The translations under genes were made by a program, and so were the position numbers. Below are positions 16,055-17,582 of a stretch of DNA of 30,951 nucleotides, in pieces; position 1 is the stretch's first letter; every line of letters begins with the position of its first letter. This DNA is from a virus (lineage: Duplodnaviria; Heunggongvirae; Uroviricota; Caudoviricetes), in the IMG/VR virus record IMGVR_UViG_2778261530_000010; one strand, written 5' to 3'. The notes under the pieces are model-generated. The model made no database searches and was not told the DNA's origin. It was given only the letters and a program-made list of their open reading frames with translations.

Positions 16055-16062
16055 TATCATAA

Positions 16063-16084
16063 GTTGCCCATCTCGATGGGCAAC
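16063..16084. terminator. Hairpin after bor (9-bp stem), possible bidirectional terminator
   Basis: GTTGCCCAT-CTCG-ATGGGCAAC, followed by a moderately T-rich tail on both strands. Confidence 0.4.
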
Positions 16085-16371
16085 TCTATCTGCACTTGAT
16101 GCGCAAATAACAACCTCCAAAAGAAAAATAGCAAAAGCAGACCGTGTCACATAAAGACGTGCAGTTACTTTCTTTTCTATTCCTTTCATAACGGACGGCT
16201 TTAAAAGAAGATTTATACGATCTGCCGAGGATTTTTCTCTGTACTCACTGATTCATATTCTCCTCTTTGTTTGGTATAAAAACCGAACTCTTTCTCCAGT
16301 CGTTTTTCTTGTTCGGTAAGTCTAATAACAAGCTAACCGCAGGTTGGATTTACTGGCCTCATTAATGCCAA

Positions 16372-16917
16372 CTACACCACCACGCGCTCTTTCATCCAGC
16401 CATACACGAACGATTCATTAGCCTCACGTTTTTCTGCCAGTTCAAGGTAGCGATCTCCCTGCGTACAGTTTAGCGCTGTCAGAATCACCAACTCACCATC
16501 CCTGCCACGTTTTGACAAATAGGCGCGTAACGCATTAATGGTACGTGGGCCGATACAACCATCTGCATCAATGTCCGGATACAACTCTCCTTTCTGGTTA
16601 AATACATTAAGCCAGCGCTGAAGCATTCTGGATGCCACTGACGGCCCCATGTTTACGCCGGTATCACACAATTCAGCAGCGATCTCCGGAGACAGGCTCG
16701 CAACCTTGTGAAAACGTGGCCCGTACCAGTAGTCCGCTTCAAGAATTTCGAGGGCCTGCCCACGCGTCAGGTCACGAATATCCCCCTGATAACCGTGTGC
16801 ACGGGCAACTTTTCCAGTAATGCCCCATTTAGTCGGACCACCTTTATCATCAGGGTGGTTGACGTAGCCGCCCTCTTTGCCAAGAACAGCATCAAAAATT
16901 TCATCTTTCGACTTCAT
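16372..16917 (-). CDS. Endolysin, glycoside hydrolase family 108 muramidase with C-terminal peptidoglycan-binding domain
   Basis: N-terminal EGGYVNHPDDKGGPTKWGIT matches the GH108 signature; position downstream of membrane-protein genes in the late operon; ATG at 16915-16917 (the ORF-track start at 16965 is GTG). Confidence 0.75.
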   Translation of the reverse strand: MKSKDEIFDAVLGKEGGYVNHPDDKGGPTKWGITGKVARAHGYQGDIRDLTRGQALEILEADYWYGPRFHKVASLSPEIAAELCDTGVNMGPSVASRMLQRWLNVFNQKGELYPDIDADGCIGPRTINALRAYLSKRGRDGELVILTALNCTQGDRYLELAEKREANESFVYGWMKERVVV

Positions 16918-16918
16918 C

Positions 16919-17197
16919 TCAGCGCCTTCGTAATACAAAGATTTTTGAAACGTTCCCACGAGCACGAACCACCAGCACGCAGAACAGCAGGTTAAAAAAC
17001 ACTTCCAGCCAGCCCGTTGCTAACGGGCGACCACACAGATAGCTGAGGGGCGCAAAGGCATACAGCAGCATCAGCAACCAGGCCAGCCATGACATCAGCG
17101 GTTTATGTCTGGAATCACGACGACGATAAAAAAAGAGCGTCAGCACGATAACCGTGCATAACGCCACATTCAGCAATCCGGGAAGGTTACTTAACAT
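16919..17197 (-). CDS. Small membrane protein, holin/antiholin candidate (about 2 TM)
   Basis: MLSNLPGLLNVALCTVIVLTLFFYRRRDSRHKPLMSWLAWLLMLLYAFAPL...; strong GGAGGAGG upstream of the ATG at 17195-17197; its TGA stop is 1 nt from the endolysin ATG. Confidence 0.55.
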   Translation of the reverse strand: MLSNLPGLLNVALCTVIVLTLFFYRRRDSRHKPLMSWLAWLLMLLYAFAPLSYLCGRPLATGWLEVFFNLLFCVLVVRARGNVSKIFVLRRR

Positions 17198-17582
17198 TGC
17201 CGCCTCCTCCACCCCGCAGGCGGGAGAACAGGCCGGACACCAGCGATGCAATATCCTGCTGGTGGATGAACGAGAGAATCTTCACCGACACCACCGCCAC
17301 CAGCACCGCACACAGTGCATCCGCCGATGTACCGTCATAACCTGTTTTTGATGCAATCCAGGCTGACAGCACATGCGCACCCAGCACACCGACAATGAAC
17401 GACACAAGAAAATGCGCTACCACCCGCCAGGCTGAAAGCGCCTGGGGCATCGTTGCCACGAACAACGCCCCCGCGAATGCGCCAAACACAATCCCGAAAT
17501 TCGTTCCGGTAAACAGTCCAAATATCGTCGCCCCGCCGAGTGCCGCAGCTGTACCAGTACCGGATAAAGGTTCAGACATCAT
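17187..17582 (-). CDS. Holin-like membrane protein (about 3 TM)
   Basis: MMSEPLSGTGTAAALGGATIFGLFTG... with hydrophobic segments; GGTGAGG upstream of the ATG; first gene of the lysis block. Confidence 0.55.
   Translation of the reverse strand: MMSEPLSGTGTAAALGGATIFGLFTGTNFGIVFGAFAGALFVATMPQALSAWRVVAHFLVSFIVGVLGAHVLSAWIASKTGYDGTSADALCAVLVAVVSVKILSFIHQQDIASLVSGLFSRLRGGGGGNVK

Follow-up and report, generated by a model that had tools for sequence, protein, structure and literature searches.

We propose that the window, by which we mean the entire 30,951-nucleotide stretch of DNA analysed here, carries, within a lambdoid E. coli prophage, a late-operon lysis cassette of the phiP27/LT-II type, and sequence comparisons indicate that the spanin module of this cassette was probably lost by mosaic recombination. 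The most likely mechanism for such a cassette is Q-dependent holin-endolysin lysis without a dedicated outer-membrane step. The window spans integrase to tape-measure gene, the distal tail region lying beyond it, and contains the following features relevant to this proposal:

19156-19503, minus strand: antiterminator Q (PF06530 Phage_antitermQ, E 6.7e-46)
19056-19080, minus strand: tR'-like intrinsic terminator (10-bp stem with 6 G-C pairs, then a T-run)
18197-18925, minus strand: ArtA/EalA-like pertussis-like ADP-ribosyltransferase, the toxin A subunit (PF02917, 1.1e-15)
17638-18063, minus strand: AB5 toxin B subunit (NF038397 AB5_pltB_like, 2.9e-46, above cut-off)
17187-17582, minus strand: holin1, Phage_holin_8 family (PF16931, E 2.8e-22; phrog_198 'holin', 6.7e-42)
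16919-17197, minus strand: holin2, Phage_holin_3_7 family (PF05449, 1.9e-21; phrog_217 'holin', 2.9e-38)
16372-16917, minus strand: endolysin, GH108 and PG_binding_3 domains (PF05838, 3.2e-25; PF09374, 1.3e-25)
16097-16269, minus strand: decayed gene for a small C-terminal-TM protein, phrog_4493/1115 family (blastn, pairwise alignment and tblastn)
16086-16096, minus strand: lambda-type Rz remnant, its last 11 nt AGTGCAGATAG including the stop codon (HK630/933W/DLP12-type homology)
16046-16189, minus strand: 47-aa ORF, a junction chimera judged not to be a gene
16063-16084, no strand assigned: inverted repeat GTTGCCCAT-CGAG-ATGGGCAAC between the Rz remnant and bor, common to lambda-type phages
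15761-16054, plus strand: bor lipoprotein gene (PF06291, 1.3e-30)
27674-28501: SPFH lipoprotein recovered in a lipobox scan, 11 kb from the cassette and unrelated to it

All three lysis genes can be confidently named. The initial annotation had recognized two membrane proteins and a GH108 endolysin, and all four elements that it named were found on the minus strand at the coordinates it gave. Holin1 scores 79.6 bits against PF16931 in an HMM search (gathering cut-off 26.4) and, as a small protein with several hydrophobic segments encoded upstream of an endolysin, is a putative holin or antiholin of this family; most of the inspected relatives, in various genera, likewise pair a holin1-like with a holin2-like ORF. 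Its proposed length of 132 aa and roughly three TM segments need adjustment, as it has 131 aa from the first ATG (130 aa from the second ATG at 17579, where RefSeq relatives begin) and three to four hydrophobic segments by hydropathy. Holin2 was correctly described as a 92-aa protein with a Shine-Dalgarno sequence (GGAGGAGG) whose gene overlaps that of holin1, in this case by 11 nt; its hydropathy profile shows three hydrophobic segments rather than the two proposed. With 76.3 bits against PF05449 (HMM search, gathering cut-off 25.4), these three segments and a charged, basic C-terminal tail (RARGNVSKIFVLRRR), it is a member of the Phage_holin_3_7 family with a putative role in hole formation. 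The endolysin has 181 aa, with an EGGY motif at residues 15-18, and HMM matches to both domains uphold its earlier assignment as a GH108 muramidase with a peptidoglycan-binding domain. Its residues 2-181 align to Sen1395, a muramidase of an S. Enteritidis prophage whose crystal structure is known (PDB 6V3Z; phmmer 8.7e-105), and residues 3-179 to TtsA (PDB 6V40; 7.5e-84). It possesses no signal or SAR sequence, its N-terminus (MKSKDEIFDAV) being hydrophilic and its maximal 15-residue Kyte-Doolittle average being 0.65. It is a soluble GH108 N-acetylmuramidase of the Sen1395/TtsA family, with a predicted activity like that demonstrated for the close homologue Sen1395. An enzyme of this kind needs a hole-forming holin, and the pinholin/SAR-endolysin system that had been suggested as an option is accordingly unlikely.

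Spanins and disruptins are diverse, small and frequently overlooked, and that of LambdaSo was found only through genetics (bioRxiv 10.1101/2024.01.23.576932). Every ORF in the window of 25 aa or more was scanned for a lipobox, a search for small ORFs that the initial annotation had itself suggested; only Bor and the SPFH lipoprotein were recovered, and a relaxed scan of 15900-19200 with rare start codons allowed yielded nothing credible. Using tblastn, 12 i- and o-spanin proteins (from lambda, Combat2C1, Klebsiella, Pectobacterium and other relatives) detected only coiled-coil noise in the tape-measure gene. In these searches six o-spanins and the phiP27-type lipoprotein gave no match better than E 0.005, and six i-spanins matched only the tape-measure coiled coil. 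An Rz-like match at 2110-2508 (E 2e-4, 21% identity) was set aside, as it lies inside the 841-aa tape-measure ORF and reflects coiled-coil bias. PHROG and Pfam searches of the window recovered no spanin, no i-spanin-type ORF with an N-terminal TMD and a helical periplasmic domain is present in 15000-19500, and no ORF in the lipobox scans combines a lipobox with a C-terminal TMD as in unimolecular spanins of the T1 gp11 type. Thus no Rz/Rz1 pair was found while the GH108 similarity of 16372-16917 stands, and the window appears to encode neither the o-spanin nor the i-spanin of a two-component system. Together these failed searches suggest that it specifies no dedicated outer-membrane disruptor.

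A spanin might still be supplied from elsewhere, either in trans by the Rz/Rz1 genes of co-resident lambdoid prophages or from prophage DNA outside the window. Co-resident spanin genes should be common, since 3273 of 5426 complete E. coli genomes contain DNA of the Rz-bor type, but those of other prophages require their own Q-dependent induction. As for the distal region, the RefSeq annotation of the EC11 prophage (99.2% identical) lists no spanin through the tail genes to gene L. We regard this explanation as very improbable.

Loss of the spanin module is instead recorded in the DNA between the stop codons of the endolysin and bor genes (16055-16371, 317 bp), where the initial annotation had noted a gap of about 300 bp and a 47-aa ORF, which is indeed the only sizeable ORF there. 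The gap contains the remnant of a gene whose counterpart follows the GH108 endolysin in related E. coli prophages. Positions 16113-16269 are 70% identical to the post-endolysin gene of one such group of prophages (L100-type; blastn, 15 loci) with frame-breaking indels, and the relationship is further seen in a pairwise alignment (164/219) and by tblastn (50% over 34 aa, E 1e-4). NCBIfam has no model for these small post-endolysin proteins. The decayed gene retains a Shine-Dalgarno sequence and a GTG at 16248, and an extra A in the A-run at 16232-16236 leads to a stop at 16213-16215; its 3' end was lost at the junction with lambda-type DNA. Homology of the HK630/933W/DLP12 Rz-bor type begins at 16096, the HK630 match starting 11 nt before the Rz stop, and these 11 nt at 16086-16096 are the sole remainder of a spanin gene. 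They are followed by the inverted repeat and by bor, which has the convergent orientation towards the lysis genes known from lambda and DLP12. The 47-aa ORF straddles this junction: approximately its first 29 codons derive from the decayed gene, read from an internal ATG, and the remainder from the end of lambda-type Rz and the hairpin. It has a net charge of about +3 and one hydrophobic stretch with a Glu inside it, lacks a Shine-Dalgarno sequence, has no PHROG, Pfam or NCBIfam match, and belongs to a protein cluster of two members among approximately 15 billion proteins. Therefore, while the earlier suspicion of a missing spanin is borne out by the lipobox, tblastn and PHROG/Pfam searches, the alternative of an atypical spanin in this ORF is not supported, as the ORF fuses part of a decayed small-membrane-protein gene to lambda intergenic DNA. 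The gap represents a recombination scar or pseudogene, not a candidate spanin, and should be annotated as such. An Rfam scan of 15000-20000 at E-values up to 1 returned only a chance snoRNA match, so that no RNA element accounts for the gap, and a promoter and terminator scan of it gave nothing above background except weak plus-strand hairpins. The spanin genes are most likely absent because recombination left only this 317-bp scar at the usual site of the spanin module.

The window as a whole is likewise recombinant. It is 100% identical to Combat2C1 over 17500-20000 and 99.2% identical to EC11 over 17579-4739; from 20000 to the crossover there is one mismatch to Combat2C1, and from the crossover to 15000 one mismatch to EC11. 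The mismatch maps against the two switch cleanly between 17379 and 17388, within holin1, which is therefore itself chimeric. The left parent, Combat2C1, has the order holin1-holin2-M15 endolysin-Rz/Rz1, and the right parent has no Rz/Rz1. This same chimeric holin1 appears, as an exact match, in 188 indexed blocks of an assembly collection, in which the 130-aa form was found and the 131-aa form gave nothing. In 19 of the 24 contigs read with this holin1, the 4-kb flank shows an integrase after IS3 and not the virion genes of the window; terminal inverted repeats of IS3 were not found at the repeat-search settings used. The holin1-holin2-GH108 trio is conserved across Enterobacteriaceae, usually with overlapped i- and o-spanin genes downstream of it, and the earlier label of a non-canonical cassette does not suit a cassette design that is itself conserved. 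Among 19 loci from other genera (endolysins 61-73% identical), detection of a canonical i-/o-spanin pair succeeded in 15, the representatives showing overlapped genes directly after the endolysin (phrog_1026, phrog_1275, 'Rz-like spanin'). The spanin-less arrangement is nevertheless not rare, with 13 complete E. coli genomes and a further set of 15 IMG/VR loci showing it, and it may be tolerated or even useful. A connection between spanin loss and toxin carriage was considered and rejected: in terms of co-occurrence all 15 spanin-less relatives with only bor after the endolysin lack an upstream toxin, so that the loss is not tied to the toxin.

Based on these observations we propose the following course of lysis. 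Q heads the late operon holding the toxin and lysis genes, and the tR'-like terminator just downstream of it is, by analogy with lambdoid architecture, the probable target of Q antitermination. Q-antiterminated transcription would pass this terminator and then cover the EalAB-like AB5 toxin genes (the A subunit scores 7.9e-82 against the NCBIfam ArtA model, which is below the model cut-off), holin1, holin2 and the cytoplasmic GH108 muramidase. As expected from their family membership, both holin-family proteins would build up in the inner membrane and form holes, through which the signal-less muramidase would then get to the peptidoglycan and, if it acts like Sen1395, degrade it. The third step, disruption of the outer membrane, would have no dedicated protein, the gap joining a small-membrane-protein pseudogene, frameshifted and cut short at its 3' end, to the 11-nt Rz remnant with its hairpin and bor. 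A phenotype like that established for lambda Rz/Rz1 mutants would be expected, with lysis reliant on shear or a weakened outer membrane and with cells remaining as spheres when divalent cations stabilise the outer membrane.

It could be argued that the spanin-less state is functional and not decay, the TtsA-like muramidase and the two holins forming a toxin-release module downstream of a periplasmic AB5 toxin; omission of membrane fusion would then favour escape of the toxin via a damaged wall and outer membrane, by type 10 secretion-like or 'leaky' lysis, over explosive lysis. We hold this to be very improbable, and a related reading, a type 10 secretion-like device that moves the toxin across the peptidoglycan or releases it rather than mainly virions, to be a little more improbable still. 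The near full-length alignment to TtsA, the muramidase of typhoid-toxin secretion, is consistent with such a device, as are Asn167 of the endolysin, which is the equivalent of TtsA N166, the toxin genes immediately upstream of the cassette and the integrase-flanked contigs described above; furthermore, Salmonella type 10 secretion systems also lack spanins (PMC13284979). However, the other three groove residues are unlike those of TtsA, D117 and E165 matching Sen1395 and position 121 being Cys, and Sen1395 cannot replace TtsA (PMC6996933). Type 10 secretion is marked by a dedicated non-phage regulator and by export of cargo from viable cells, whereas the cassette appears to lie in a late operon under Q control, within a prophage whose virion genes follow it, from terminase, portal and capsid through to tape-measure. 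Nor does the distribution favour this device, as the 15 spanin-less relatives with only bor are toxin-free and the toxin-carrying parent, Combat2C1, has Rz/Rz1. Least probable of all is an unrecognised outer-membrane disruptor, either the 47-aa ORF acting like the phiKT gp28 'disruptin' or a dual-role holin-family protein: small cationic peptides can substitute for spanins (bioRxiv 10.1101/515445), this open frame lies at the spanin position and the spanin-less arrangement is widespread, but the chimeric origin of the ORF, the want of a ribosome-binding site and family matches, its two-member cluster and the Glu in its hydrophobic stretch all count against it, as does an IS66-family element tolerated upstream in the same gap of one relative (L034), with the flanking genes undisturbed.

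Simple loss of the module, which the evidence favours, would make this a clear and traceable case in which a lambdoid prophage lost its outer-membrane lysis step by module exchange. The same prophage bears a pertussis-like AB5 toxin and a muramidase close to the typhoid-toxin secretion enzyme of Salmonella Typhi; if spanin loss did alter the exit of the toxin from the cell, it would be relevant to pathogenesis. The survey also provides material for testing the small lipoprotein module of the phiP27 type, a putative minimal spanin with phrog_1115/4493, phrog_4906 and phrog_7528 genes, as in E. coli N18-04097, that occupies the spanin slot of most E. coli versions of the cassette.

The cassette type is already known from LT-II prophage records and, with an M15 endolysin, from phiP27. 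The LT-II prophages Rac-SA53 and SerU-LTIIb (GenBank KU052037 and KU052038; Jobling 2016) contain the same trio, labelled holin1/holin2/endolysin, with DNA 78-81% identical over the trio and endolysins 87% (Rac-SA53, tblastn) and 83% (SerU-LTIIb) identical to that of the window. Like the window, Rac-SA53 has a pertussis-like toxin upstream of holin1, and neither prophage has a spanin annotated directly after the endolysin, where LT-II toxin genes take the place of the scar and bor. At least one LT-IIa relative (L058) differs from the window in having an M15 endolysin and Rz/Rz1 further downstream. In phiP27 the holins L28/L29 are homologous to holin1/holin2 with approximately 90% DNA identity. 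Both phiP27 and Combat2C1 use an M15 peptidase endolysin in contrast to GH108, and the lambda-like embedded Rz/Rz1 pair of Combat2C1 is absent from the window, as is the 60-aa lipoprotein of phiP27, which Kongari et al. (2018) list as o-spanin in the shortest of the two-component systems. The endolysin shares GH108 and PG_binding_3 domains, the EGGY motif and the lack of a signal sequence with Sen1395 and TtsA. The uncharged groove of TtsA (I116, Q120, Q164, N166) confers specificity for LD cross-links, N166 being critical for function (PMC6996933); the equivalent residues are D, R, E and D in Sen1395 and D117, C121, E165 and N167 here, a mixture from which LD versus DD cross-link specificity is not readable. 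The cassette occupies the same Q-dependent late-operon position as lambda S-R-Rz/Rz1-bor, with a convergent bor immediately downstream, and an identity of 89% to lambda-type phages extends over the 11-nt Rz remnant, the hairpin and bor; unlike in lambda, the holins and endolysin are of unrelated families and Rz/Rz1 is gone except for those 11 nt. About 13% of surveyed Gram-negative phage genomes have no identifiable two-component or unimolecular spanin (Kongari 2018; PMC6139136). The window resembles such phages, including phiKT with its disruptin (Holt et al.), in the absence of a spanin; it differs from phiKT in that no gp28-like peptide gene is evident, and from all of them in that the absence is traceable to a specific recombination scar.

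The gene order integrase, Q, tR'-like terminator, toxin, lysis genes, bor, IS3 and virion genes identifies the window's lysis genes as the late-operon cassette of a nearly complete lambdoid prophage, which runs from an integrase at one end to a tape-measure gene at the left end:

29638-30951, integrase
between integrase and Q, early and replication genes
19156-19503, Q
19056-19080, tR'-like terminator
17638-18925, between terminator and holin1, pertussis-like A subunit, then AB5 B subunit
17187-17582, minus strand, holin1 (Pfam Phage_holin_8, 2.8e-22; phrog_198 'holin')
16919-17197, minus strand, holin2, 92 aa (Phage_holin_3_7, 1.9e-21; phrog_217 'holin')
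16372-16917, minus strand, endolysin, 181 aa (GH108, 3.2e-25; PG_binding_3, 1.3e-25)
16046-16189, 47-aa ORF, the only sizeable ORF between endolysin and bor
after the lysis genes, on the opposite strand, bor and a DUF1398 gene
13801-14972, after bor/DUF1398, IS3
after IS3, Nu1, terminase, portal and head genes

The toxin operon (17638-18925) is of the ArtAB/EalAB-like, pertussis-like AB5 type, and occupies the position, between the tR'-like terminator and the holin, that the Stx genes take in Stx phages; EC11 (an E. coli relative) and 1303 have ORF6N and HTH genes here. Near the integrase end (27489-28501, plus strand) lie the genes of a 62-aa membrane protein and, after it, of a 275-aa lipoprotein whose SPFH/Band 7 domain scores 6.1e-31; they may constitute a moron.

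The three lysis genes are closely packed on the minus strand (16372-17582), and their coordinates along with the Pfam and phrog matches bear out the two overlapping small membrane proteins and the GH108/PG_binding_3 endolysin of the initial annotation, except that holin2, given about two transmembrane segments there, has by hydropathy three hydrophobic segments and a strongly basic C-terminal tail. Holin1 has 3-4 such segments and is 131 aa long from the first of two neighbouring ATGs or 130 aa from the second, which is the choice in its RefSeq relatives; it overlaps by 11 nt with holin2, whose Shine-Dalgarno sequence is GGAGGAGG. Both are predicted holins, and their sequences do not separate the hole-forming protein from a possible antiholin. 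The endolysin has no hydrophobic segment (maximum 0.65) and hence neither a signal nor a SAR sequence, which makes the pinholin formerly considered unlikely.

No spanin is encoded in the window. When all ORFs of 25 aa or more were scanned for a lipobox, only Bor and the SPFH-domain lipoprotein near the integrase came up, and the latter has no relation to the spanins of lysis cassettes. Less stringent criteria applied to 15900-19200, with rare starts permitted, revealed no signal-peptide-like ORF nested in the lysis genes. Likewise, tblastn queries with six spanins of each type (i and o) and with the phiP27-type lipoprotein detected no spanin in the window, the matches in the tape-measure gene being coiled-coil noise. 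Furthermore, EC11 carries a prophage that shares 99.2% identity with the window from holin1 up to and including the head genes, and RefSeq annotates no spanin in it anywhere from the integrase through tail gene L. The initial annotation had left a choice between a missing and an atypical spanin, and these searches support the former.

The 317 bp between the endolysin and bor stop codons (16055-16371) are, judged from their sequence, a recombination scar. Homology to lambda, Stx phages and DLP12 (89%) spans bor and ends at 16096, and the match to HK630 starts 11 nt before the Rz stop codon, so that of Rz the window retains only AGTGCAGATAG (16086-16096), followed by a shared hairpin (16063-16084) and bor. 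The rest of the gap is complete in only 13 complete E. coli genomes, each time in the same arrangement; it is not orphan DNA, as in 15 IMG/VR prophage loci the DNA 3' of the endolysin gene, whose product is 87% identical, matches 16113-16269 at 70% identity. There it corresponds to a gene for a small protein with a C-terminal transmembrane segment, whose remnant (16097-16269) keeps its Shine-Dalgarno sequence and GTG start (16248), while an additional A in the run of As at 16232-16236, together with other indels, disrupts the frame, leading to a stop at 16213-16215. Its 3' end and the entire lipoprotein gene have been swapped for the lambda-type segment. The 47-aa ORF, once a candidate for an atypical spanin, is chimeric: it starts at an internal ATG of the decayed gene, ends in lambda-derived DNA, lacks a Shine-Dalgarno sequence and any family match, and its protein cluster has two members. 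The gap of one relative (L034) also houses an IS66-family element; this element (3595-6290, corresponding to window 16323-16339) has ORFs of 216, 115 and 523 aa and about 17 bp of window sequence on both flanks.

We fetched about 100 loci with relatives of the endolysin and classed their downstream content. Outside E. coli (Leclercia, Silvania, Enterobacter, Citrobacter, Kluyvera and Klebsiella phages; endolysin identity 61-73%), a canonical i-/o-spanin pair was detected in 15 of 19 loci, representatives showing holin1-like, holin2-like and GH108 genes followed by overlapped i-/o-spanin genes (phrog_1026 and phrog_1275, 'Rz-like spanin'). The layout, earlier described as non-canonical, therefore represents a cassette type that is conserved and includes a canonical spanin, and the window is a spanin-less recombinant member of this known family. 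Among the 87 E. coli-type loci with sufficient downstream sequence (endolysin identity at least 80%), a small lipoprotein, alone or together with small TM proteins, follows in 49, bor only, as in the window, in 15, Rz/Rz1 in 12 (one, L058, downstream of LT-II genes), LT-II toxin genes in nine and none of these in two. The LT-IIa prophage L058 (1063-6271) has a composite cassette that encodes, in order, an EalA-like toxin, holin1, holin2, GH108, LT-IIa A/B, another endolysin (M15), a 116-aa ORF and Rz/Rz1; its GH108 plus LT-II unit seems to have been inserted into a cassette of the phiP27 type, which retained its spanin. L065 has, starting 85 bp after the endolysin, the 155-aa gene found behind Rz/Rz1 in the L009 group, suggesting that its spanin pair was deleted separately.

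Most E. coli cassettes of this type have a conserved module in the spanin slot, made up of a 60-aa lipoprotein (phrog_7528; 30 aa when mature, with three Cys) and either one or two very small membrane proteins (phrog_1115/4493, phrog_4906), as at L100 3713-4070, downstream of the endolysin in L044, and at 5018-5206 in phiP27 (L002). These are real genes under purifying selection (pN/pS 0.24, 0.41 and 0.08; holins 0.22-0.27), and tblastn searches of window-type prophages for the phrog_1115/4493/4906 proteins came up empty. The phrog_7528 lipoprotein is also encoded by phiP27, and Kongari et al. (2018), relying solely on sequence, list it as the o-spanin in what they give as the shortest two-component spanin; the phiP27 i-spanin that they propose (record 20348-20542, starting with TTG) overlaps an ORF of 90 aa on the other strand.

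E. coli Combat2C1 is identical to the window over 17500-20000, with one mismatch (18168) over 17380-20000 and 98.7% identity over the entire 25451-16925 alignment, while EC11 has one mismatch (17316) from 17387 to 15000 and 99.2% identity over 17579-4739. The change from one mismatch map to the other is clean and falls between 17379 and 17388, which places a homologous-recombination breakpoint inside holin1 and makes the window a recombinant; none of the collection's complete E. coli genomes exceeds 98.6% over 15700-17700. In Combat2C1 an M15 endolysin is followed by a lambda-like Rz with embedded Rz1, whereas the scar is found in EC11; hence the toxin-carrying lineage was deprived of its spanin through homologous exchange, the partner being a prophage that already lacked one. 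RefSeq annotates the embedded Rz1 of Combat2C1 (L005 10474-10968; Rz1 10694-10879) but not the enclosing 164-aa Rz ORF, the kind of annotation gap that Kongari et al. describe. The index of the assembly collection has precisely this chimeric holin1 in 188 blocks; of 24 contigs read that carry it, 19 have an integrase beyond IS3 within the 4-kb flank. One representative, L112, matches the window as far as 13851, in IS3, and then again at an integrase with 97% identity to that of the window, but without the virion genes that the window has after IS3. Such loci (L112-L116) fit either a truncated prophage remnant carrying toxin and lysis genes or a tandem arrangement.

Family membership, the signal-less endolysin and the operon position point to a standard holin-endolysin pathway that would be under Q control. 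In lambda Rz/Rz1 mutants lysis depends on shear or a weakened outer membrane, and by analogy lysis by the spanin-less cassette would probably show the same dependence. Alternatively, a holin and a TtsA-like muramidase might form a type 10 secretion-like device that moves or releases the AB5 toxin; we consider this very improbable in view of the phage late-operon context, the spanin-less relatives that have no toxin, and the toxin-bearing parent Combat2C1, which has Rz/Rz1. A hidden outer-membrane disruptor encoded in the window and a spanin supplied in trans both seem unlikely, and neither has any positive support. The C-terminal REANESF stretch, including Asn167, also occurs in the 87%-identical E. 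coli relative L100. The endolysin aligns over its full length with the Salmonella muramidase Sen1395 (phmmer 8.7e-105), has an EGGY motif at residues 15-18, and belongs to a family with known muramidase activity in Sen1395 (PMC6996933). At the groove positions that distinguish Sen1395 from TtsA, the typhoid toxin secretion muramidase, it has D117, C121, E165 and N167: two of the four are as in Sen1395, and Asn167 is the TtsA residue tied to LD cross-link recognition (PMC6996933), whereas the other three are non-TtsA, which further argues against a secretion device.
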